From the IMG/VR virus record IMGVR_UViG_2512047041_000008: DNA of 56,009 nucleotides; one strand, 5' to 3'. The notes beneath the pieces are model-generated. The model was not told the DNA's origin. It saw only the letters and a list, made by a program, of their open reading frames with translations, and did no database searches. Source of the DNA: a virus. Lineage: Duplodnaviria > Heunggongvirae > Uroviricota > Caudoviricetes. The position numbers and the translations under genes were made by a program. Positions within the stretch are counted from its first letter, which is position 1; every line of letters begins with the position of its first letter. Of the stretch, positions 1 through 12,657 are shown piece by piece.

Positions 1-1284
1 TTACAGACTTCTTGAAGGTTGCGCAGCTGCTACAACACGCGGTTGATCTTCCGCGGCATCTTCCAGTGCACTTAAATCACGGTCTTTCACTTCTGGCATT
101 TTCAGCGCAGAGATTAAACCAATCACTGAATATGCCATGATCATAATGGCGATCGGATACCAGGATTCCGTCATGGTGCAGAAAATACCCGCCAGGATAG
201 GACCAAAACCGGAAGCGATAAGACCACCAATTTCTTTAGAAATAGCCATCCGGGTAAAGCGGTTTTTACAGCCGAACATTTCTGCCATGGTAATGTTTTC
301 CAGAGCAAATAATCCCAGCACCGCACAGTTATGAATCACAATCAGTGCAACCATAATGGTGCTCGGGGCATAGCTTTTATCTACGATGATAGAAAGCATT
401 GGCCACGCCAGCACAATCGCAGAGGTATTCATAATAATATACGGGATCCGGCGACCTATTTTATCGGATAACCAACCAAGGAACGGAATGGTCATAAAGC
501 CGAGAATCGAACTGATCATCAATGCATCTGTTGGAATTGCTTTGTTAAACAATAACGTCTGCACTAAATAGCCTGCAAGGAAAGTCTGAATTAAACCGGA
601 GTTACCAGCCTGACCAAAACGCAGCCCTGTTGCCAGCCAGAAGGATTTGCTCTGGAACATGCTACCAGCAGGTGCAGGTTTTGCTGTCGGTTGGTTACTG
701 TCGTTAACCTTCTCAAAGACCGGGCTTTCTTTCAGATTCATACGCAACCAGATAGCAAAGACCATCACGACAACGCTCGCCAGGAAAGGTATACGCCATC
801 CCCACGCCAGCAGTTCCTCTTTACTGAGAATGAAGAACATAAAGGCCCAGATTGCCGTTGCGCTCAAGGTTCCGCAGTTAGTTCCCATAGCCACAAATGA
901 GGAGATAATTCCGCGCTTACCTTTTGGCGCATATTCCGCCAGCATCGTACCGGCACCGGAAATTTCCGCGCCAGCCCCCAGCCCCTGAATAATACGCAGC
1001 GTCACCAGCAAAATTGGCGCAAACACACCAATTTGTGCATAGGTCGGCAGCACACCAATTAAGGTGGTACAGATCCCCATCATGGTGATGGTAATAAAGA
1101 GCACTTTTTTACGCCCTATTCTGTCGCCCATTTTGCCGAAAATAAATGCTCCGACAATACGTGCCACATAACCTGCACCATAGGTTCCCATTGCCAGAAT
1201 TAACGCCATTGCCGTTGACGATTCAGGAAAAAATATTTCATGAAAAACTAACGCTGCGCCGAGCGAATATAACTGGAAATCCAT
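1..1284 (-). CDS. ydfJ: MFS-family transporter (metabolite:H+ symporter-like), chromosomal gene flanking the prophage
   Basis: 427-aa ORF, multi-TM, MFS signature around GRKKVLF; matches recalled E. coli YdfJ, which is the Qin prophage neighbour. Confidence 0.8.
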   Translation of the reverse strand: MDFQLYSLGAALVFHEIFFPESSTAMALILAMGTYGAGYVARIVGAFIFGKMGDRIGRKKVLFITITMMGICTTLIGVLPTYAQIGVFAPILLVTLRIIQGLGAGAEISGAGTMLAEYAPKGKRGIISSFVAMGTNCGTLSATAIWAFMFFILSKEELLAWGWRIPFLASVVVMVFAIWLRMNLKESPVFEKVNDSNQPTAKPAPAGSMFQSKSFWLATGLRFGQAGNSGLIQTFLAGYLVQTLLFNKAIPTDALMISSILGFMTIPFLGWLSDKIGRRIPYIIMNTSAIVLAWPMLSIIVDKSYAPSTIMVALIVIHNCAVLGLFALENITMAEMFGCKNRFTRMAISKEIGGLIASGFGPILAGIFCTMTESWYPIAIMIMAYSVIGLISALKMPEVKDRDLSALEDAAEDQPRVVAAAQPSRSL

Positions 1285-2069
1285 AATTCACAGGTGTTTT
1301 TTCCCATCCTGTGGTTTCCTTGGCGTTTTCTAGGTTTTTTCAGATAGTTGCATTTTTTAAAAAGCATCCTAAGTTCGATCTCAGTGTCTATCTGGGGCCT
1401 ATTTCTGTCCCATATATGCCCCAAAAAAACTCCTCAACAGATAAGTAGTTTTTTCATGGAGTTACGCGTAAAATCAATAACGGCTGGAAATCATTCAATA
1501 CTCGCACTATCGAAAAATTTACCAGCCAACCGCAGCACGTTCTTGCATAAGGCGTGTCTGCGGTTTTTCAACTATTCAGATACATCACTCCCATCACATT
1601 CATTCCTCCGCATCAAAGGCATATAGGCTATATCACCTTGATATTTTTCTTCTTCAGATAAAAACTGTTATCTATGTATACTTTTAAACCCAATCCGTGT
1701 AGAGTCTCTGCATAAGATAGTTTGCAGTTGCCACTTCAGCTTGCGCCATAAACCGCCTGATTTTTGCCGCCATCTGTTAGCATTCCTGTATACCTGAAAC
1801 GACAATGTTTATCTACGAACTTTAAGAACACCCAGGATAAAAATTGTCAACTATATCATATATAACACATTACTAATTCGAGGCTATATGAACAGCATAC
1901 TGATAATCACTTCGCTCCTTATCATATTCAGCATTTTTAGTCATGCTCTAATAAAATTAGGGATTGGCATATCCAATAACCCAGACAAAACCGATGTATA
2001 AGTCAACATATCCTGAATCAGACATACAATATCGCAATGAAAATCAATAATATTTTAAGGAATATATTC

Positions 2070-2303
2070 ATGAAATCAAAAGACACCCTAAAGTGGTTCC
2101 CTGCGCAGCTTCCTGAAGTCAGAATTATCCTAGGGGATGCTGTAGTGGAAGTAGCAAAACAGGGAAGACCTATCAATACCAGAACATTGCTTGATTACAT
2201 TGAAGGAAACATAAAGAAAAAATCATGGCTGGATAACAAAGAATTATTACAAACAGCGATATCAGTTCTTAAAGACAACCAAAATTTAAATGGTAAAATG
2301 TAA
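2070..2303 (+). CDS. ydfK: YdfK/YnaE-like cold-shock-inducible prophage protein
   Basis: ORF 2037..2303; internal start MKSKDTLKWFPAQLPE matches recalled YdfK/YnaE. Confidence 0.65.
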   Translation: MKSKDTLKWFPAQLPEVRIILGDAVVEVAKQGRPINTRTLLDYIEGNIKKKSWLDNKELLQTAISVLKDNQNLNGKM

Positions 2304-2619
2304 TATAATAAACTTACTTTTTTATCATTTTTCCACTTTAACAACATTTTGCTCCACTTTTCCACGACCAAACAACTTGAAATCTGGTTAAAATAACACG
2401 CAACACTATTCTTCTTCCTTGAGTCCGCCCGGAACTCGAAAAACAAACCGAGTTAAAGCCATTTTTCACAAAATCGATTTTGGGTCTCACCAAAATTACG
2501 GGGTTGCATACGCATTCGTTTATTTTCGAACGTGTACATACAAACATGCACAAAAATAATCAAAATTATTTTCTGAGATGCATTATGATATGAACACCAA
2601 TTTCGTATAGAGTCTCACT

Positions 2620-2979
2620 ATGTCTCGAATTTTTGCTTACTGTCGGATATCAACGCTGGATCAGACCACCGAAAATCAATGCCGGGAAATCGAAAGTGCA
2701 GGTTTTAAAATCAAACCTCAGCAAATAATCGAAGAACACATTAGCGGCTCAGCAGCAACCAGTGAGCGTCCTGGTTTTAACCGGTTGCTTGCTCGCCTGA
2801 AATGTGGTGATCAATTGATTGTGACAAAACTGGATCGCCTTGGTTGTAATGCAATGGATATCAGGAAAACAGTGGAACAACTGACCGAAACAGGTATCAG
2901 AGTGCATTGCTTAGCATTGGGGGGCATTGACCTGACCAGTCCAACAGGAAAAATGATGATGCAAGTAATTTCAGCAGTC
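2620..2979 (+). pseudogene. pin: Serine recombinase / DNA invertase (Pin-like), N-terminal part, interrupted by IS629
   Basis: N-terminus [15 protein letters not shown] is a resolvase/invertase catalytic-Ser motif; reading frame runs straight into the IS629 end, which supplies the stop codon. Confidence 0.8.
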
Positions 2980-3021
2980 TGAACCGCCCCGGGTTTCCTG
3001 GAGAGTGTTTTATCTGTGAAC

Positions 3022-3912
3022 TCAGGCTGCCAGATCATCGTTTCCGATGGAAGCATAATAAGCTTTTTCTGCTTCTGCCGGAGGAGTATGGCCCAGCCTT
3101 TCCAGCAATCGTCGATTGTTATACCAGTCCACCCACGTGAGTGTGGCCAGTTCCACTTCTGCACGGTTTTTCCAGCTCTTACGGTGTATTACCTCCGCTT
3201 TGTAAAGACCATTGATGCTCTCCGCCATCGCGTTGTCATACGAGTCGCCTGTACTTCCTGTTGATGCCAGTAATCCGGCTTCCTTAAGCCGCTGTGTGTA
3301 GGCCAGCGATACATACTGAGAACCTTTATCACTGTGATGGACCGTGCCGGACGGTCGACGGGCCCATAACGCCTGCTCCAGTGCATCCAGCACGAATGTC
3401 GTTTCCATGGACGATGAGACCCGCCACCCCACGATGTATCCGGCAAACACATCAATGATGAACGCCACATAGACGAAGCCCCGCCATGTGCTGACGTAAG
3501 TAAAATCAGCCACCCACAGCTGGTCAGGTCGTTCTGCCACGAACTGACGGTTTACGCGGTCGCCTGCGGCAACGGCTTTCCGGCTGATGGTCGTACGGAC
3601 CTTTTTACCCCGGAGAACACCGGCAAGTCCCATAACCGCCATGAGACGTGCCACAGTGCATCTGGCCACTCTGATACCTTCCCGTAACAACTGACGCCAG
3701 ACTTTACGCACACCGTATACCTTGTGATTTTCATCGTATACGCGCTGTATCTCTTTCTTCAGCCAGTCATCGCGCTGCGCACGGGCACTGCGTTTATCCG
3801 GATGATGTCGCTGTTGCTGACAGTGGTAATACGTTGACGGGGCAATATGCAGTTCGCTGCATAGCGGTCCGACCCCGTACTGCTCACGCAGCTTATCCAG
3901 CAGTGGCATCAT
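3022..3912 (-). CDS. IS629 transposase OrfB (DDE catalytic domain)
   Basis: 296 aa, DDE/rve-type; start overlaps orfA stop (ATGA). Confidence 0.85.
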
Positions 3913-4235
3913 TTTTTCCAGAGGCGGTCGAACTCCGCCTTCGCAAAATAAGCGGAAGCCTGGCGAAGGATATCGTTACTGCGGCGCAGTTCACGATTTT
4001 CACGTTCCAGCTCTTTCAGACGCTGACGTTCAGCGGTGGTGAGCCCTCCATCACCGCCCCCGGTATCCCGCTCATGCTGGCGAACCCAGACACGCAGAGT
4101 CTCCGGCGTACAGCCAATCTTTGGAGCAATGGAACAAATTGTCGCCCATTGTGAGTCATATTCGCTCTGACTTTCCAGAACCATACGGACTGCCCGTTGA
4201 CGGACTTCGGGGGAAAAACGAGTATTTTTAGTCAT
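3909..4235 (-). CDS. IS629 transposase OrfA (HTH)
   Basis: 108 aa, [19 protein letters not shown]...; IS3-family OrfA. Confidence 0.85.
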
Positions 4236-4289
4236 CCTGTTTACCTCTTTCTCAGGAAGTTTAGTCTCCAGGATTCCCGGGGCGGTTCA

Positions 4290-4523
4290 GTCGCTGAATT
4301 TGAACGAGACCTTTTACTTGAACGCACTCATTCCGGGATAGTAAGAGCCCGGGGCGCAGGAAAACGTTTTGGTCGACCACCTGTGTTAAATGAAGAACAG
4401 AAACAGGTGGTATTCGAACGGATTAAGTCAGGTGTAAGTATAAGTGCCATTGCCCGGGAATTCAAAACCTCGCGGCAAACCATTTTAAGAGCCAAAGCAA
4501 AACTTCAGACACCTGACATATAA
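4290..4523 (+). pseudogene. pin: Pin-like invertase C-terminal part (HTH DNA-binding domain), separated from N-part by IS629
   Basis: After removing the IS and one GTC copy the frame continues ...[19 protein letters not shown]...; Fis/Hin-type C-terminal HTH. Confidence 0.75.
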
Positions 4524-4750
4524 AAAATAATCTCGGTGTGAGATGCCTTACGTCTTCCAAGCCCCCTTCCTTGCCGTAAATGGAAAGATACATCTAATTA
4601 TAGAATTTATATGTTTTACCCTACGGCAGTGCTGGCCATTCAATATCCTGTGCAGTTGACGTATCAACACGGTTCAGCAACACCCGATACTTCTTCCAGG
4701 CTTCCCGCAACGAGGTTTCTTCCTCCGTTGCATATACAGCTCACCTTTTT

Positions 4751-5044
4751 TCACCCACGATTAACCAACAGCCAGACCAGCAGACACGCCACCACCGGCA
4801 CAGCAAAATCCATCAGACTTGTCACATCCCACGCGCGCGGATCAAAACCGCCCCACCACGGCATATTCATTCGCTTGCCATGCCCGAACATTTCAATCCA
4901 GCGATATTCTGCCTGGGTATGTTCACGCGCAATGAAGAACGTACAACCGGCTATCGCCCCGTAAGCCCAGTTTCCGGTAAAAAGACCAACCAGTACCTGC
5001 GCAGCCACAGCACAAAGTGCATGAAGGAAAGGTGTTATATCCAT
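4751..5044 (-). CDS. Hypothetical small membrane protein (2-3 predicted TM segments)
   Basis: 97-aa ORF with hydrophobic stretches; no recognised family. Confidence 0.45.
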   Translation of the reverse strand: MDITPFLHALCAVAAQVLVGLFTGNWAYGAIAGCTFFIAREHTQAEYRWIEMFGHGKRMNMPWWGGFDPRAWDVTSLMDFAVPVVACLLVWLLVNRG

Positions 5045-5054
5045 TACTCCTCCT

Positions 5055-5759
5055 TTATCCGATATCGCTTCGGGAAGTTGATAACAACTTTAATTCTGAC
5101 TCAAGTTCATCAACTCTTTCAGTCAGTTTCTGGATATGGTGAATCAGTGGAACAACCAGACGTTCGTACATTACACCTTCGGCAACAAGGCCATTGCTGG
5201 AAATAGCTTCAGGAGCATCATTCTCGTTAGCTGGTCGCCAGTGAACAAACTGAGGGGCAATTTCTCCTACTTCCTCGGCAATCAATCCATAGAATCCCCA
5301 ATCGCGCCTGTCATTTTCGCATTGCGACCTGTACCACACAGGGCGCATCCTGAAAATGAGATCGGCGTGCTCCGAATCTATCGTCTCTACTGAATGTTTA
5401 TAGCGGATAGACGATGTGGACCGCAGTACAGACGAAATTGCGGGGTCAGGATTAAGATAAAGGTTTGCCGCCGCTGTAGTCGTGCCCAATCCCCACAAAT
5501 AAAACGCTTCACGACCAGTCAGCGGGTAAAAATCTCCACCATAACGACCACTTTCCAGATCGTTCACTTCCACTTTGTTTTTCAGCTTATTATCAACTTC
5601 AGTTTTTGTGTATCTGGTGCTGATATCCTGCTTTGCACTGGTCATATCAGTCTGAAGCGTTGATACTTTTCCGTTAATTGAGGAAATATCTTCCTTGGCT
5701 TTACTGACATCTCCCTTTAACGTGGTGATGTCTCCTGGAATTACTGTCGATGTAGCCAT
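5055..5759 (-). CDS. Tail-fibre-like protein with N-terminal coiled coil and C-terminal intramolecular-chaperone (peptidase S74-like) domain
   Basis: 234 aa; C-terminal pattern SSIRYKHSV...GLIAEEV...YERLVVPLIHHIQKL...LESEL resembles S74 auto-cleaving chaperone domains of tail spikes/fibres. Confidence 0.5.
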   Translation of the reverse strand: MATSTVIPGDITTLKGDVSKAKEDISSINGKVSTLQTDMTSAKQDISTRYTKTEVDNKLKNKVEVNDLESGRYGGDFYPLTGREAFYLWGLGTTTAAANLYLNPDPAISSVLRSTSSIRYKHSVETIDSEHADLIFRMRPVWYRSQCENDRRDWGFYGLIAEEVGEIAPQFVHWRPANENDAPEAISSNGLVAEGVMYERLVVPLIHHIQKLTERVDELESELKLLSTSRSDIG

Positions 5760-5768
5760 TTGTCTCCC

Positions 5769-6050
5769 TCACATCCAGCCACGAAGTTGATGCTCAACAA
5801 CAATCGCGTATTTATCGAATATTGACGATTTTTTTGCATCATTAATGATGCGCACGTTTACAAAATATCCGTCCTCCTTAACACATACCGGTTCGCCATC
5901 TTCAGTCAGTTCTCCGGTTTCTTTGTACACGTTACCTATCACGTCAATAAGAATATCATCCTGCATCGACTCGTCATCATAATAGCCAATACTCTCCATA
6001 AAGGCCGAAAAGTCGGCCCTGTCTGCAAATTTGAGCGTTAAATCTTTCAT
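5769..6050 (-). CDS. Hypothetical acidic protein between stf and the S74-domain gene
   Basis: 93-aa ORF, start overlaps stf stop (coupled); no recognised family. Confidence 0.4.
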   Translation of the reverse strand: MKDLTLKFADRADFSAFMESIGYYDDESMQDDILIDVIGNVYKETGELTEDGEPVCVKEDGYFVNVRIINDAKKSSIFDKYAIVVEHQLRGWM

Positions 6051-8452
6051 TTAATACTCTCCCCCATTTGCGCATCAGTTAATTCTTTATGCCAGAGACG
6101 AAGATTTCTCAAATGGCCGAATAGATGACGAGTTCCCGATGTGGCTTGACCTCCAATTCGAATAAAGGTCCGTGTTTTTACGCCCGTCCACTCCGTTTTC
6201 ATGGTTTTAGTAGCCTCACCGTTAGAAACTACTCGTTTAGTACCATCAGAATAAATATTAAAACCACCAATGAATTTTCGAACATCAGTTCGACCAGCAA
6301 ACACACTAGAAACGTAAGTACTTGTCGACGCTTTATAAGTTTGCATATAAAGCTGACCGTAATATTTCTCAGTTGTGTTAAAAGCGTATGTAATTGACTC
6401 AATAGGTGGCACACCAGAAAAATCAAAAATACGCGGTGCTACATTAGGAGGAATATCGCCCCAATTTCTATTAACCTCGACCAGGCACGTAAGCGGTCTA
6501 TTATAGATATTATTTTCAGTTGGGATCGTCACCATATCACTGGAGCGGGTTGCGGGTACAGTTGTCGTAATAACAAAAGATGAAGCACATCCGCCGTTTT
6601 CAAATTGTGGTGTTGCAAGGTAAATATAATCTCCCGCTTCAGTTACACCACCTTTTTTCGGCGCATACTGAATCATTGCGCCAATTAAGGTTTCACCTTC
6701 AACAGCTTCTATAGTTGCCTCATAGAAAATCCACCCTGTAACCGGATCTTTAGTTGCAGTAGCTGCTATTCTATTGGCTGCTCCGCCAGTTTTTTCTATT
6801 ATCAGAGTTCCGAAAGTTAAATAAGCATCTCCTAAAAATGTATAAACCGACCCATCGTATTTTTCAAAACGCAAACGACAACGAAGACCATCAGGAGCTT
6901 TAACCCTGCATGAAACAGTGCAATACTTATTATCGCCACTAACATCAATCCCCCGGGATGCACTGCATGTATGCAGACTAAGTGCAGATGATTGTCCTGT
7001 CATATTATCTTTTGTTCGCATTTTGGCATATGAAAAACCAAATTCATCAACACCATTATTAGTTTTATCGATATTGCTGGTACTCGTCCATTCAGCGGGG
7101 ATATTGGATTTAACAAAATAGTTAGTGCGCTGTCCTTCAATCAATAAACCTTCTTTTTCAAATCGTGGCTCATCAATTTTAGCAACACTAAATACGCCTG
7201 ATTTATTGATATATGTGGCAGTTGATGCGCGTTTAAACTTTACAACCTTATCGCCAGGCATCGTTATTTCATCATCACCAATAACAATCTTTTTATATGA
7301 CGGCGAAAAGCCCGTAATCATATCCAGTGAATCGTTAAACGGTATCCACACATCGGGAAGCGGCTGCAAAACTTGTTTATACGGCTCCGCAGCCTGGCTT
7401 GCATACTCTCTGGCTGCGTCTTCACTTGCTTTTGCAGCCGTCTGGCTTGCTGCCGATGCTTTCGCTGAGTTAGCCGCCGCAGTCTCGCTCGCCTTTGCGT
7501 TGGTTTCACTGGTTTTTGCAGCTTTTTGACTGTTGGCTGATGCAGAGGCAGAAGAAGCCGCCGCACTTGCAGAACCAGCTGCGGCACTCTCGCTTTGGGC
7601 TGCTGCATCCTGACTGTTTTTCGCCGCAGTTTCACTGGCTTTGGCATTCGTTTCGCTGGTCTTCGCTGCCGTCTGGCTGGACTTTGCGTTAGTTTCACTC
7701 GTCTTCGCAGCTTTCTGGCTGTTAGCCGCAGCAGTTGCTGATCCAGTTGCTGAAGTCGCAGAACCGGCTGCCGCGCTCTCGCTTTGGGCTGCTGCAACCT
7801 GGCTGTTTTTTGCCGCAGTTTCACTGGCTTTGGCATTCGTTTCGCTGGTCTTCGCTGCCGTCTGGCTGGACTTTGCGTTGGTTTCGCTCGTCTTTGCGGC
7901 TGTCTCGCTATTTTTCGCGTTGGTTTCTGATTTTTTGGCTGCTGTCGCGGAGTTTTCTGATGCAGTCTGTGAGGTCGCTGCCGCCTGTGCACTATTAGCT
8001 GCATTCGTTTCTGAGGTTTTCGCCGCGTTCTTCGATGATGCCGCTGCAGTTTCGGATTTCTTTGCCGCCGCTGCGCTCTGAGAGGCGGCTTCGGCGTTGC
8101 GTGCCGCTTCTTCCACCATTTCCTCAAAACGACGCAATGCCTCCGGCATGACATCATCTTCCGTCATGGCACCGAGAAAATCATTCAGCGTACCTGGTCT
8201 GGAACCTTCATAGACGGTAATGGTTCCGGCATGTGAAGGCGGAAAACCTTCAACAAGCAGGATAACGCTGTACTGGCCATACTCAACATCCATGCTGTAA
8301 CGCCCGGCTTCATCCGGATTTTCAGAGGCCACCGTGTTCACCAGTACCGTGGTGCTGTTACGCTTTGCCTTCAGTTGAATAGTGCAGTTCTGTATTGGTT
8401 TTCCCGCACCATCTTTCAGCACACCTGAGATTTTTACTGCTGCCATATCCAC
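6047..8452 (-). CDS. stf: Side tail fibre protein (lambda Stf-like N-terminus, Ala/Ser/Thr-rich repeat shaft, lectin-like C-terminal domain)
   Basis: 801 aa; N-terminus MAAVKISGVLKDGAGKP matches recalled lambda Stf; internal tandem repeats. Confidence 0.75.
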   Translation of the reverse strand: MDMAAVKISGVLKDGAGKPIQNCTIQLKAKRNSTTVLVNTVASENPDEAGRYSMDVEYGQYSVILLVEGFPPSHAGTITVYEGSRPGTLNDFLGAMTEDDVMPEALRRFEEMVEEAARNAEAASQSAAAAKKSETAAASSKNAAKTSETNAANSAQAAATSQTASENSATAAKKSETNAKNSETAAKTSETNAKSSQTAAKTSETNAKASETAAKNSQVAAAQSESAAAGSATSATGSATAAANSQKAAKTSETNAKSSQTAAKTSETNAKASETAAKNSQDAAAQSESAAAGSASAAASSASASANSQKAAKTSETNAKASETAAANSAKASAASQTAAKASEDAAREYASQAAEPYKQVLQPLPDVWIPFNDSLDMITGFSPSYKKIVIGDDEITMPGDKVVKFKRASTATYINKSGVFSVAKIDEPRFEKEGLLIEGQRTNYFVKSNIPAEWTSTSNIDKTNNGVDEFGFSYAKMRTKDNMTGQSSALSLHTCSASRGIDVSGDNKYCTVSCRVKAPDGLRCRLRFEKYDGSVYTFLGDAYLTFGTLIIEKTGGAANRIAATATKDPVTGWIFYEATIEAVEGETLIGAMIQYAPKKGGVTEAGDYIYLATPQFENGGCASSFVITTTVPATRSSDMVTIPTENNIYNRPLTCLVEVNRNWGDIPPNVAPRIFDFSGVPPIESITYAFNTTEKYYGQLYMQTYKASTSTYVSSVFAGRTDVRKFIGGFNIYSDGTKRVVSNGEATKTMKTEWTGVKTRTFIRIGGQATSGTRHLFGHLRNLRLWHKELTDAQMGESIK
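7569..7946. repeat. Two tandem 189-bp (63-codon) repeat units inside stf, within a longer degenerate repeat tract
   Basis: Sequence from 7569 recurs at 7758 with near identity over about 120 bp; encodes repeated SETNAK..TAAK motifs. Confidence 0.8.
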
Positions 8453-8510
8453 TCCACAAAAAAGCCCGCCTGAACCGGCGGGCTGTCATAACACTGTGTT
8501 ACCTGGCTAA

Positions 8511-9110
8511 TCAGAACTTATAACCGACACCCACGATGAAACCGTCAGTGCGCCAGTCGCCACTGCCGGAGCCTTCATAAGCAATATCAATGGCCACGGA
8601 TTCGGTCGGGTTAAACTGCACGCCAGCTCCCCACGCCAGAGACGTGTTGCTGTGGCGATCGTCATCACTTCCGGTCAGCACATCGTGCGTTTTCCCCTTG
8701 TTGTCAGTTACGCGGAGATAATCCCCGGAGAACGTCGAAACACGGCTGTAAGCCACACCTGCCATCGCATAAGCACTGAACCATTCATTCACGCGTACAG
8801 ATGGCCCCGCCATCATGCTGAACCAGCGGTTACGCACGGAATCTTCATGCCAGCGGGTATCGCTGTAATGCGTTTTTTGCTCATCTTTGGCATTGGCATA
8901 ACTGAATGACGTCACCAGCCCCAGCGTGTCCGTAAATTCATAACGGTATTTCACGTTAATGCCCTTCAGGTCATCACTGCCTGGCATATCAGTATGGGTC
9001 TGAAGATACCCGGCGCTTAGTGTGGACTGATGCTCTGCTGCGCTCGCTGGCGTACCAGCGGCAACCAGCCAGACTACTGCGGACAGAATAACAGCACATA
9101 ATTTACGCAT
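8511..9110 (-). CDS. lom: Lom outer-membrane protein (Ail/Lom family)
   Basis: 199 aa with signal peptide and beta-barrel pattern; position after J as in lambda. Confidence 0.85.
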   Translation of the reverse strand: MRKLCAVILSAVVWLVAAGTPASAAEHQSTLSAGYLQTHTDMPGSDDLKGINVKYRYEFTDTLGLVTSFSYANAKDEQKTHYSDTRWHEDSVRNRWFSMMAGPSVRVNEWFSAYAMAGVAYSRVSTFSGDYLRVTDNKGKTHDVLTGSDDDRHSNTSLAWGAGVQFNPTESVAIDIAYEGSGSGDWRTDGFIVGVGYKF

Positions 9111-9177
9111 AATTACCTCTCGCTTTTCTGCAATAAAAAAGGCGTCATTTCTGACGCCCGTATTGGGGTTATAAAAT

Positions 9178-12100
9178 TCAGCTGATACTGATGCCTGCGG
9201 TGGCTTTCTTCATCACCACAACCAGCAAATCGCTGATACTTGCTGTGGGATACCAGTCATTTACCAGCCATGCTGACACCGAAAACTCCAGCGTCATGTG
9301 ACCGTGACCGGCAGGCATATCAATAACGCCACTGTAAATCAGCGTATTATCCAGCGCGGTACGGTTATAAATTTCAGCACCGTTTTTCCGCACTATCAGA
9401 CGGCATGAGGAGTAAATATCAGTATGCTCTCTCTCATGTTTAGCGCCGCTGAATGCCACCGCCGGAATAACAATCTGCCGGTCAAACGGCTGATCGTCAT
9501 AAATCCTGACGGTAATGGTCCCTGATGGCCACCGTTCCGGTGCACGGGAGTCCCGGGGGAAAGCTTTACCCACTGTTTTAACGAGATCGCCTTCAATCTG
9601 GTTCGCGGACAGTTTTCCCAGAACCCGGCAGTTCTCGTTAATCGTGACGTTGTTGAGCGTCCCGGAGTTCGCATTCACGTTACCGCTGATATCGGCATTT
9701 TTCGCCGTCAGCCGCCCGTCCGGTGTCAGGGAAAATGCCGGAGGATTACCGCCGCTGGTAATGGTGGGAGCCGTCAGATATTTCAGGAACACTTCGTTCA
9801 TGAATATCTGATCGCCCTGACCAACAAACATCGGCTTTGTGTTGCCATTCGCAGGATTAACCATCGCAATCCTGTCCGCCGCCAGCAGCACCTGACTCTG
9901 CATGCCGTCAGGGGTGTTCTCAATACCGGCACCAATACCCGCGATATAAAGGCGTCCGTCCTGCATCTGCTGCAGCTTCACAGCCCACATGCTGTTCAGG
10001 TTATTATTTGTATCAACCTGAACCTTCTGTATCTGCTGAATTGCCGCACTCTGGTCTTCCAGTTTCTTATTGACGGTCTGCGTGATTTCATTGCTGACAT
10101 CCGTAATGGACGTCCTGATTTCAGCCAGGTCAGGCGCAAGCTGACCGTTATCAATCTGCGTCCACAGCTCCTGAGCCAGATGGCTTTTCCCTATCTCGCC
10201 TTTGAAAAAATCCAGATAGCCGGATGCATCATCACTCGGCTGGCCAACAGCCTCCACAAATGCCGATTTGCCAACGGTGTTCACACTGCGGATGTAAAAA
10301 TAATAATCATGGCCCGGTTTGATATTGATACTGGCAGCTATCCAGTACAGCGCCGTGCCAAGATAGCGGGCTGTGGTTTCAACCTGCCTGATATCCGCAA
10401 TCCGCTTTTCCGAGAACCAGAACTCAAACTGTACCGTCGGATCATAAACGGCAAGATGGGGCGTGGCGGTTATCTGAAAATAGCCCGGCGTCAGCTCAAT
10501 CCGCGACGGCGCTGCCGGTGCGGCAATACGGAACGATACCGATGCCGGATCGCCCTGCTGCCCCCAGGCATTTGCCGCCCGGACTGTCAGCCTGTAGTTT
10601 CCCAGCGCCAGTTGCGTGAAGCGGTATGTGGTTTCCGTCGTCCGGGCCGTGCTGACCAGCCGCTCACTGCCGTCATCCGCTGCCACGGTCAGGCGAAGCA
10701 GGAAGCTCACGCCCTTCACCACCTTCGGTGTGTCCCATCGCGCCAGCACCTGATATTCCCCGCTGTCTGCAGTGACTTCTGCGGTCAGGTGCTGCACCGC
10801 TGGCGGCGTGACACCATTCACCGTGCCACTCTGTTCGCCGTCAAAGTGCGCCCCGTTATCCACGATGGCCTCTTTTTCCGGCACATGCTGCACGGCGGTG
10901 ATGGCATACGTGCCGTCGTCGTTCTCACGGATACTCACGCAGCGGAACAGTCGCTGGCGCAGCGTCGGCAGCTTCAGCCCCCATACGCTGTATTCAGCAA
11001 CACCGTCAGGAACACGGCTCACTTTTACCTTCACGCCGTCGGTGACGGACTGAACCTCCACGCTGACCGGATTGCCACTTCCGTCAACCAGGCTTATCAG
11101 CGTGGTACCGGAGGATGGCAGCGTGATTTCACGGTCGAGCGTCAGCGTCCGGGTCTGGCTGTTCACCGCCAGCACGCGACCACCGGTGCTGATACCGGCA
11201 TAGTCATCATCGCAGATTTCAATGACATCGCCCGGCACATGGCGAAGCCCTTCTGCGCCCACGCTGAAATCCACGGTCTGCGTTTCCAGCAGTTCCGTTT
11301 TAATCAGCCACAGCCCGGCGCGGTGTGCCTGCCCCCGGCTGGTACAGCCAAAGGCATCCATCTTCGTGACATTACGACCGTAACGGGCAATGGCCTGCGT
11401 ATCTTCAACAAGCTCTGTCGCCGTCTCCCAGCCGTTGTCCGGGTCAATCCAGTTCACCTCAACGGCATTATGGCGGTCCTTCAGGGCGCTGAAGCTGTAG
11501 CGGAACGGCGCGCCATCATCCGGCATCACCACATTACTGCGGTTATAGGTCCACACCTTATCCGACTGTCGGTCCTGCACGAACGTCAGCGTCTGCCCGT
11601 TCCATACCGGCATACAGCGCATCGCCGAGCAGAAATCACTGAGCACATCCCACGCCTTGCGCTGTGTGGTCAGGTACGCATTACAGGTGATGCGCGGCTC
11701 CGTGCCGCCAAAGCCGTCCGGCACTGACTGGTCGCAGTACTGGCCGATGACATACAGCGCCCATTTGTCCACATCCGCCGCACCAAGACGTTTCCCCATG
11801 CCGTAGCGCGGGTGGGTCAGCATATCCCACAGACACCAGGCCATGTTGTTGCTGTATACTGGTTTTAACGTTCCGTCCCAGATACCGCTGTATTGTCGCG
11901 TCTGCGGGTTATAGTTCGACGGCACCTGCAGAATGCGCCCGCGAAGATGATAATTACGGCTCACCTGCTGGCTGCCGAACTGCTCCGAGTCCACCTGTAC
12001 GCCGACCAGTGCCGTGTTCGGGTAGCACTGTTTCACATCGATGATCTCGGTGTATGACGACCAGAGCGTTTTGTTCTGCAGCTGGTCTGTGGTGCTGTCC

Positions 12101-12657
12101 GGCGTCATCCTGCGCATCCGGATATTGAACGGGCGCGGCGGCAGGTTATCCACCACCACCGAGGCCAGATACTGCGAGGTGGTTTTGCCCTTAATGGTGA
12201 TGTCTTTTTCCGTCACCCAGCCACCGTTACGCTGTATCTGAACCAGCAGGCGGACTTCCGACGGATTCCTGTCTCCCTTTGAGGTGGTTTCCACCAGTGC
12301 CTGTACACCGAAGGTAAAGCGCAGACGGTCGATGTTTGCCGACGTGATGGTCCGGGTGATCGGCGTTTCATATTTCACTTCCGTACCGAGCACCGTCTCG
12401 GAACCGGAGGATTCAAATCCCTCCGGCGGTGACTGCTCCTGCTCACCTGCCCGGAACACCACCGTGACGCCGGAGATATTGGTATTCCCCTCACTGTCCA
12501 GCACCGGCGTACTGTTCAGCAGCACGCTTTTTAATCCATCCACCGGACCTTCAATCGGCCCTTCGCTGATGGCATCAATCGCACTCAACAGCTGCGTGGA
12601 TTTCAGGTTATCTTTCGCTTCGCGCGGGGTATGCCCCTTACTGCTGCCTGTACCCAT
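9178..12657 (-). CDS. J: Tail tip / host specificity protein J
   Basis: 1159 aa; position and size as lambda J (1132 aa). Confidence 0.9.

Follow-up and report, generated by a model that had tools for sequence, protein, structure and literature searches.

A conserved, horizontally mobile gene set at the tfa site of a lambdoid prophage points to a two-part side tail fibre

Downstream of the side tail fibre gene stf in a lambdoid prophage, we find three small genes, two of which belong to a conserved and horizontally mobile fibre cassette; on balance, we read these two as accessory genes of a side tail fibre made of two parts, and the third as unrelated cargo. The prophage lies in a stretch of 56,009 nucleotides (nt) of tailed-phage DNA (IMG/VR record IMGVR_UViG_2512047041_000008), hereafter the window, and its module encodes an acidic protein of 93 amino acids (aa), a 234-aa protein ending in a Peptidase_S74 (S74) domain and a 97-aa membrane protein. 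Side tail fibres decide which Escherichia coli surface glycans a lambdoid phage grips, and they are being engineered to retarget phage-derived vectors. An earlier note, written from the sequence alone, had drawn attention to the three genes as a non-lambda module in the place of tfa, the tail fibre assembly gene.

A conserved cassette with an exchangeable third gene

The cassette consists of a fibre with a lectin-like C terminus, a protein of about 93 aa and, optionally, a small fibre that ends in an S74 domain. Outside prophages, the closest full-length homologues of the 234-aa protein are stand-alone proteins of 221-234 aa from virulent Drexlerviridae (57-62% identity). In the Drexlerviridae phages KarlJaspers and PeterMerian, a lateral tail fibre of 651-655 aa is followed by a 92-aa gene that abuts or overlaps its stop codon and then by an S74 gene of 225-231 aa; the Queuovirinae phages KurtStettler and JenP2 keep the same order, with third genes of 510 aa and 348 aa, respectively. 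The arrangement recurs in a metagenomic prophage whose small protein is about 29% identical to that of the window (GpJ, a 565-aa fibre, a 100-aa protein and a 332-aa S74 protein), and another locus has a fibre and a 100-aa protein with the S74 gene absent. The third-gene products of these phages all end in the Pfam domain PF13884. The 93-aa and S74 genes travel with this Stf C-terminal type (lectin-like, 'GTA head-spike fibre') as a cassette that is not specific to lambda, and the fibre relationship that the earlier note had suspected is borne out by the presence of the cassette in Drexlerviridae, Queuovirinae and metagenomic phages.

Alleles of the third gene encode 234, 332, 346, 348 or 510 aa; all have the S74 end, and those from E. 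coli phages have about 30 N-terminal residues in common. The 346-aa product of phage Tritos is 66% identical to the 234-aa protein over residues 1-32, after which only the S74 fold is alike, and the 234-type N terminus also heads the 225-, 231-, 348- and 510-aa third-gene products of Drexlerviridae and Queuovirinae. Between the coiled coil and the predicted cleavage site, the longer alleles carry a beta-rich domain of 110-170 residues, where the 234-aa type has about 50 residues. Across 80 IMG/VR loci, the gene order is always stf, 93-aa gene, third gene of the 234 or 346 type and 97-aa gene, and each of the two alleles combines with Stf C-terminal alleles of 40-100% identity. When 79 loci were retrieved through the 97-aa gene, its upstream neighbour was a third gene of the 234 type in 30, one of the 346 type in 23, the 93-aa gene without a third gene in 20 and another gene in 6; phage 21 likewise has stf, a 92-aa gene and the 97-aa gene with no third gene between them. 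At the nucleotide level, the window matches Tritos across the 97-aa gene as far as position 5045; the match returns at 5716, some 15 codons after the start of the third gene, and extends across the 93-aa gene, with the breaks exactly at the edges of the third-gene body. These conserved flanks are natural recombination handles for swapping the third gene. The earlier note had left a choice between an alternative receptor-binding module and a fibre-maturation module: fibre-related it is, and we favour a second, swappable fibre subunit, given the N terminus that is shared by products with different middle domains, the independent assortment from Stf and the absence from loci of the phage 21 type.

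The three genes are real and common rather than chance open reading frames (ORFs), and the ORF list returned exactly the sizes and positions that had been noted earlier (Table 1). All 87 of the 87 related loci have an unbroken 93-aa ORF, and the 234-aa ORF is exactly 234 aa long in 47 of the 57 loci that have this allele, with ATG as every start. Median pairwise ratios of nonsynonymous to synonymous substitution rates (dN/dS) of 0.28 for the 93-aa gene and 0.16 for each of the other two indicate purifying selection. Counted by megablast-level similarity in 5426 complete E. coli genomes, the 93-aa gene is present in 987, the 234-aa gene in 745 and the 97-aa gene in 1886, the last with up to seven copies per genome. 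Genes of the module also occur in deposited phage genomes, including PhiR49_1, IdasGreatGrand, Tritos, HannyBb and phage 21.

An S74 chaperone domain with its catalytic dyad

In the 234-aa protein, PF13884 matches residues 116-172 at 27.3 bits (gathering score, 22) over profile positions 1-57 of 58, so that the chaperone-like C terminus described in the earlier note now has a profile match above threshold. The domain is also precomputed on close homologues; the protein aligns to the C terminus of phrog_3299 and to the C termini of several tail-fibre PHROGs, and RefSeq names it 'tail fiber domain-containing protein'. Its N terminus matches the N termini of phrog_4563 and phrog_19752. The N-terminal coiled coil seen earlier has perfect a/d heptads over residues 11-46 and a weak match to the coiled coil of the P22 tail-needle protein gp26 (4lin). 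A second heptad helix spans residues 198-226 and is hydrophobic at all 9 a/d positions, which fits the central coiled coil that a chaperone domain should have. The N-terminal coiled coil is separated from Ser116 by only about 50 residues (63-115), which are homologous to the pre-cleavage segment of the long fibres P0036 and P0042.

The Ser-Lys dyad, for which the earlier note had proposed a search, is Ser116 and Lys121. The best solved-structure matches of the protein are a T5-like L-shaped fibre (8hqz, weak) and the MYRF auto-cleavage domain (7dc3), and the two residues align to the catalytic serine and lysine of MYRF and to the T5-like fibre. When nine third-gene products are aligned, only eight columns are invariant, and these residues fill two of them. 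T5 pb1 is cut between Thr1263 and Ser1264, with Lys1269 activating the serine (PMC4690869), and the 234-aa protein has the same Thr/Ser-x4-Lys spacing (slash, cut). Judged from these residues, the protein probably cleaves itself, with predicted products of 12.4 kDa (N-terminal) and 13.8 kDa (chaperone).

Given that the protein aligns to positions 1147-1384 of the 1385-position phrog_3299, that long fibres with homologous ends exist (P0036, P0042, P0045 and P0050) and that the region, with a tfa remnant nearby, is a hot spot of recombination, the ORF might be taken for the non-functional C-terminal leftover of a long S74-ended fibre, stranded by an incoming stf and 93-aa cassette. We consider this highly improbable, because the gene has a conserved ATG and a strong Shine-Dalgarno sequence, a dN/dS of 0.16 overall and of 0.26 within residues 1-35, an N terminus common to other stand-alone proteins and full-length homologues (57-62% identity) in compact virulent phage genomes, and is found in 745 of the 5426 E. 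coli genomes. With ORFs intact and dN/dS low, a dead remnant was rejected.

The side tail fibre and its 93-aa companion

Stf comprises an N-terminal tail-attachment domain, a repeat shaft rich in Ala, Ser and Thr, a neck, a lectin-like region and a C-terminal tail. Residues 5-97 match a solved chain deposited as 'Tail fiber protein' (9e7m_Ta), and the KarlJaspers lateral tail fibre is 46% identical to residues 265-801. Conservation was profiled over 71 distinct C-terminal alleles. In residues 332-450, which include the neck (~352-450), and in the tail (772-801), the residue of the window is kept in a fraction of 0.70-0.87; in residues 452-771, which are variable, the fraction falls to 0.33-0.66. 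The variable region is likely to be the glycan-binding part, and the conserved blocks are candidate contacts for the 93-aa protein and the third-gene product. Pfam and NCBIfam scans found in Stf no intramolecular chaperone of its own and beside it no Tfa-type partner. The stf shaft (window 7300-8160) is built of nested tandem repeats of 21, 42 and 189 nt that encode Ala/Ser/Thr-rich 'SETNAK..AAKT' units and give rise to long spurious ORFs on either strand (279 aa at 7318-8157, minus strand; 146 aa at 7641-8081, plus strand). In the RefSeq annotation of strain N32, stf is cut into two pseudogene pieces with 'hypothetical proteins' between them, and in the window it is one intact ORF of 801 aa.

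The 93-aa protein is acidic, as had been noted, and occupies the position of tfa but is not a Tfa. It has no Pfam, NCBIfam or PADLOC match and no similarity in sequence or fold to the known Tfa-type families (lambda Tfa, Mu U and P2 G), and its AlphaFold2 (AF2) model, with a predicted local distance difference test (pLDDT) score of 86.6, gave no informative fold match. The family is small: a set of 1.84 billion proteins yields 67 clusters at 50% identity, and almost all members are stand-alone and 85-110 aa long; the 92-aa protein at the same position in KarlJaspers is 53% identical. Two repeat proteins that came up as profile relatives (P0368 and P0369) were set aside as spurious, their matches being marginal and their sequences repeat-rich on inspection.

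The start of the 93-aa gene coincides with, or abuts, the end of an ORF longer than 300 aa in 96 fetched loci, and the fibre stop overlaps or abuts the start of the small gene in phage 21, KarlJaspers, PeterMerian, KurtStettler and JenP2 and in loci L091 and L094. In the window, the start overlaps the stf stop (ATGA at 6047-6050), from which we infer translational coupling of the 93-aa gene to stf. Because the protein persists in loci without a third gene, its function appears to be tied to the upstream fibre, and we propose, with medium-to-low confidence, that it is an Stf assembly factor or a junction piece (adaptor).

A model of a two-part fibre

In the model that we favour, Stf would be the proximal fibre, attached to the tail by its N-terminal domain and ending in variable lectin-like domains, and the 93-aa protein, serving as assembly factor or junction piece, would bind Stf at its conserved neck or at its C-terminal tail. 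Three 234-aa chains would trimerise through the five heptads; the S74 domain would nucleate the folding of a short beta tip (residues ~63-115) and then cleave itself off between Thr115 and Ser116, the latter activated by Lys121, so that the mature protein, of 12.4 kDa, would have its tip freshly exposed. Its first ~30 residues, which are conserved, would dock it onto Stf or the 93-aa protein. The conserved flanks in the 93-aa and 97-aa genes would let recombination swap the body of the third gene for larger receptor-binding alleles, or delete the gene. The 97-aa protein would stay outside the fibre and act on the envelope, with superinfection exclusion or a limit on re-adsorption as low-confidence guesses.

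The 234-aa protein could instead be a stand-alone S74 chaperone that acts in trans, perhaps together with the 93-aa protein, to fold and trimerise the C-terminal domains of Stf without entering the virion, so that the module would replace Tfa functionally. Such a helper would suit an Stf that has neither an intramolecular chaperone nor a Tfa partner; its gene sits where fibre chaperones usually sit, and hardly any domain of its own lies between the coiled coil and S74. We nevertheless think this unlikely. To our knowledge, the S74 domains characterised so far, as in the endosialidase work, all act in cis on the chain that they end. That of T5 pb1 acts in cis and is then cleaved off (PMC4690869). 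The middle domains of 110-170 aa in sister alleles of the same slot would make no sense in a chaperone, third-gene alleles assort independently of the Stf allele, and the conserved N-terminal heptad module looks like a structural anchor. Moreover, the third gene is missing from about a quarter of the lambdoid loci, phage 21 included, which carry a 92-aa gene and a related Stf. Because a dedicated chaperone is unlikely to vary in mid-domain, to assort apart from its client and to be missing from about a quarter of the loci, a distal or branch fibre subunit docked on Stf is our best reading of the 234-aa protein.

Several points weigh against a two-part fibre. The BASEL records of KarlJaspers and PeterMerian annotate the homologue of the 234-aa protein as 'putative lateral tail fiber chaperone', a label that favours the trans-acting chaperone, although we found no experiments behind it. 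A tblastn search with residues 1-38 against 50,697 phage records matched 95, and neither the 60 matches listed nor the organism counts include a T5-like or phiEco32 record. Outside the coiled coil, the mature 234-aa product would keep about 50 residues, which is very small for a receptor-binding domain; with so little mature sequence, this allele may serve as a structural cap or stub and not as an adhesin. Across the 80 IMG/VR loci, the 93-aa protein keeps at least 90% identity while the Stf C terminus spans 40-100%, and such near-constancy sits oddly with a chaperone dedicated to variable domains, although Stf does have conserved blocks. For the 97-aa protein, stand-alone chromosomal copies suggest a general cellular role. 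Literature searches turned up neither virion proteomics nor genetic work on the three proteins, none of which appears to have been studied experimentally.

For annotators and engineers, the cassette tells which genes must move together and where natural swap points lie, and our preferred reading would correct the 'chaperone' label that the third gene carries in deposited phage records.

A widespread membrane protein next to receptor-binding genes

A grand average of hydropathy (GRAVY) of 0.49 and a three-helix AF2 model (pLDDT 93.4; helices at residues 4-23, 26-52 and 74-96) agree with the membrane protein that the earlier note had described as possible cargo. Because virulent phages with the fibre cassette (KarlJaspers, PeterMerian, KurtStettler and JenP2) are without the 97-aa gene, the fibre does not need it. 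Among 35 diverse members, 25 columns are invariant and are concentrated in the polar loop. The family comprises 580 clusters at 90% identity from Gamma-, Beta- and Alphaproteobacteria, including Escherichia, Salmonella, Leclercia, Citrobacter, Pantoea, Aeromonas, Halomonas, Comamonas, Acidovorax and Sphingomonas, and the protein of the window is 57-60% identical to Aeromonas and Comamonas members. It has no Pfam, NCBIfam or PADLOC match, and so no match to a known defence or exclusion family; a Pfam scan of the 35 diverse homologues at E values up to 1 gave only scattered noise (PhoR, cytochrome b561 and one holin_8), a fold search of BFVD gave nothing significant, and the N terminus, MDITPFLHALCAV, read from sequence, has no lipobox.

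In each phage context examined, the gene stands directly after the last receptor-binding gene or its chaperone. It follows the fibre genes in phage 21, the receptor-binding gene in the myovirus phiHAP-1, an S74 tailspike in the Cobetia phage Carin-5, an S74 fibre in a P2-like Leclercia prophage and gpJ or fibres in Comamonas and Acidovorax prophages; on a 160-kb Salmonella contig it lies between two tailspikes. In the P22-like phage Gally (L148, 3260-3790), a 95-aa homologue lies between the tailspike and the integrase, a gap that in P22-like phages usually holds O-antigen conversion genes. Its neighbours thus include S74 fibres, P22-type tailspikes, P2-type fibres and J-type tips, with no co-variation with the receptor-binding gene.

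Further contexts were noted. A terminator-like hairpin (3289-3309) and a promoter-like site (3326-3355) precede the Gally homologue, which looks like an autonomous moron, unlike the copy in the window. In a Comamonas nitrativorans prophage (L121, ~3785-7404), judged by eye from ORF translations, the homologue lies between a 383-aa putative variable receptor-binding or fibre gene and genes that look like avd (four-helix accessory protein) and the reverse transcriptase of a diversity-generating retroelement. In a lambdoid IMG/VR locus (L204, 5041-6685), likewise read by eye, the 97-aa gene is followed by a second short fibre (347 aa, stf-like N terminus) and a tfa-like gene (197 aa), so the gene can sit between two fibre sets. 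Stand-alone chromosomal homologues with no phage genes nearby were also seen (L009, 6001-6309; L108, 5001-5321; L110, 4989-5321): an Aeromonas copy lies between pirin and RIO1 kinase genes, near two lipid A acyltransferase genes, and a Leclercia copy between dcp and a metE-like gene with urea-transporter genes. Domestication could account for these copies, or they may be what is left of old prophages.

Our leading guess for the 97-aa protein, a tentative one, is a role directed at the envelope, such as exclusion. As a moron for lysogenic conversion or superinfection exclusion, it would alter or mask the envelope, for example in surface glycan assembly or DNA entry, and so protect the lysogen or progeny phage. 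The slot after receptor-binding genes is typical of conversion and exclusion genes, and O-antigen conversion genes lie downstream of the tailspike in P22 and epsilon15. The Gally copy, between tailspike and integrase with its own upstream terminator and promoter-like site, fits such a role, as do the membrane location suggested by the AF2 model and the presence of the gene in lambdoids but not in virulent siphoviruses with the same fibre cassette. We hold the idea as a possibility only, because the protein matches no PADLOC, Pfam or NCBIfam family, is near-invariant beside unrelated receptor-binding proteins, so that it does not track the receptor, and is also encoded by large phages that are probably virulent and, away from phage genes, on the chromosomes of Aeromonas and Leclercia. 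A moron signature was looked for in the window, where the gene has no promoter or terminator of its own, no GC shift and a gap of just 10 nt to the upstream gene.

A holin-like lysis protein would also have about 100 aa and three helices, and one family member has a marginal Phage_holin_8 match (E = 0.042). In some Comamonas-type prophages (L154, 4758-6536; L155, 4805-6715), the homologue is found where the tail-fibre genes give way to a lysis cluster (holin-like gene, endolysin, Rz and an embedded Rz1 lipoprotein), the sole context that hints at lysis. This is very unlikely to be its function: the protein has an invariant polar loop of 36 residues and ends in ...LLVNRG without a charged C-terminal tail, and its gene stands next to fibre genes and far from lysis genes in E. 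coli lambdoids, P22-like, P2-like and other phages and is also found alone on chromosomes. In the window, too, no lysis gene adjoins it. Holins are notoriously diverse, and 57-60% identity across E. coli, Aeromonas and Comamonas is higher than would be expected of them.

It is also conceivable, at a similar level of doubt to the moron, that this widespread, unnamed family of small inner-membrane proteins, found in all three tailed morphotypes, has a new conserved activity directed at the envelope, such as a generic block to phage DNA entry or interference with a step of surface-glycan assembly, and, separately, that the 93-aa protein is a new fibre junction or assembly protein specific to lectin-like-ended fibres. 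The most promising lead to emerge from the module is the 97-aa family, a single small gene that recurs beside the receptor-binding genes of very different phages.

Genomic setting and junctions of the module

The module lies in the Qin attachment region of E. coli. At the left end of the window lie ydfJ, ydfK and a Pin-type invertase interrupted by an IS3-family element, and a lambdoid tail region (J, lom and stf) lies on the minus strand (Table 1); in K-12, the order at the Qin site is ydfJ-ynfT-ydfK-pinQ-tfaQ-stfQ-nohA. Nucleotide homology to K-12 covers window positions 1-2979 and 4288-4732, flanking the IS3 insertion, and because it ends at 4732, the DNA from 4733 into stf is foreign to K-12 Qin. 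This agrees with the earlier statement that the three are not lambda or K-12 Qin genes, K-12 having tfaQ and stfQ here. The companion claim, that the module stands in place of tfa, holds in part: other genes do occupy the tfa site, but the last ~111 bp of tfa survive and the cassette is not a lambda-specific substitute. In the RefSeq annotation of strain N32, which is 99.9% identical, the remnant is entered as a tail fiber assembly protein that is incomplete. The right-hand recombination junction of the module is marked by this remnant.

Table 1 Positions of the module and of neighbouring features in the window
Feature	Position	Strand	Basis or remark
tfa 3' remnant (last ~111 bp)	4621-4731	-	K-12 tfaQ/pinQ homology over 4288-4732; RefSeq annotation
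97-aa three-helix inner-membrane protein	4751-5044	-	phrog_1443, function unknown; loop AREHTQAEYRWI..FG.GKR.NMPWWGGFD
234-aa small fibre protein	5055-5759	-	N-terminal anchor, coiled coil, short beta tip and C-terminal S74 intramolecular chaperone
S74 chaperone domain, residues 116-234	5058-5414	-	Predicted to be released; lowest dN/dS in the protein, 0.12
Predicted autocleavage site Thr115/Ser116 with Lys121	5397-5417 (Ser116 codon 5412-5414; Lys121 codon 5397-5399)	-	Invariant dyad
Five heptads, predicted trimeric coiled coil, codons 11-46	5622-5729	-	11/11 a/d positions hydrophobic, none elsewhere
N-terminal module (MATSTVIPGDITTLK...), codons 1-32 of the 234-aa gene	5664-5759	-	Common to the 346-, 348- and 510-aa alleles; proposed docking segment
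93-aa acidic alpha/beta protein	5769-6050	-	phrog_1361, function unknown; isoelectric point (pI) 4.31; overlaps stf stop
stf side tail fibre, 801 aa	6047-8452	-	Pfam phage_tail_N, residues 5-134 (6e-67); NCBIfam GTA_spike_fiber domain, 437-637
lom	8511-9110	-	
J	9178-12657	-	

The genes stf, 93, 234 and 97 look like a single late transcription unit. On the minus strand, gaps of 9 nt and 10 nt separate the 93-aa from the 234-aa gene and the 234-aa from the 97-aa gene, a strong Shine-Dalgarno sequence stands before each start (GGGGGAGAG, GAGGGAG and AGGAGG), and neither a promoter-like nor a terminator-like site was found within the unit. Upstream of stf, strong intrinsic-terminator-like hairpins lie on the same strand after lom (8463-8484) and after J (9140-9159), so transcription of stf and the module would need read-through, for example by Q-type antitermination, or an unrecognised promoter.

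The Pin-type invertase, a pinQ homologue (2620-4523), is split by the IS3-family element (~2980-4287), which has a two-ORF frameshifted transposase and terminal inverted repeats of 26 nt (2979-3004 and 4265-4290). An invertible cassette driven by this neighbouring invertase was considered and rejected: the sole significant inverted repeat is formed by the IS3 ends, none flanks the module, and the tail-to-tail arrangement of pin and tfa also occurs in K-12 Qin and in Tritos.

Comparison with known fibre systems

The side tail fibre loci of lambda (Stf/Tfa) and K-12 (stfQ/tfaQ) share with the window the slot after J and lom, a homologous Stf N terminus and a small gene whose start overlaps the fibre stop. 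They differ in that the 93-aa protein is unlike Tfa in sequence and fold and that in the window only the tfa remnant is left, downstream of the module.

In its S74 domain, the 234-aa protein resembles T5 pb1, the K1F endosialidase and GA-1 gp12, with an above-threshold Pfam match, Thr/Ser-x4-Lys at the domain start, a C-terminal place and a heptad helix after a mixed alpha/beta part. T5 pb1 is a fibre of ~1260 residues with a bullet-shaped tip, whereas cleavage, which is predicted here, would leave 115 residues, about 60 of them coiled coil.

Two-protein fibres offer the nearest architectural parallel. In phage DT57C, LtfA and LtfB form a branched fibre and both end in S74; the first 45 residues of LtfB are an anchoring module in common with phiEco32 gp15, its body is variable and it is attached via LtfA (PMC4728585, PMC10713586). 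In the BASEL collection, distal fibres with a T5-like tip and an intramolecular chaperone are attached to lectin-like-ended proximal fibres (PMC11990801). The DT57C pair, phiEco32 gp14/gp15 and BASEL examples such as IrisVonRoten are like the window in having two consecutive fibre genes, the second with a short conserved N-terminal module, an S74 end and no tail-attachment domain (the 234-aa protein has no Pfam phage_tail_N), and also in a lectin-like proximal end and a horizontally exchanged distal gene. Unlike the LtfA/LtfB type, the window has an Stf without its own S74, the ~93-aa protein always stands between the fibre genes and has no counterpart there, and the distal subunit can be absent. 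No sequence similarity was seen between the LtfB/gp15 anchor and the 234-aa N terminus, so the resemblance is by analogy only.

The Drexlerviridae phages KarlJaspers and PeterMerian and the Queuovirinae phages KurtStettler and JenP2, by contrast, carry true homologues in the same order and with the same stop/start overlap or abutment; the Drexlerviridae identities are 46% for the fibre C-terminal domain, 46-53% for the 92-aa protein and 57-62% for the S74 protein. These phages differ in being virulent, in having no 97-aa gene and in the annotation of their third gene as a chaperone. Set beside these systems, the module is a conserved, horizontally mobile accessory set of what is probably a two-part side tail fibre, a known kind of system and ordinary, if uncharacterised, phage biology.

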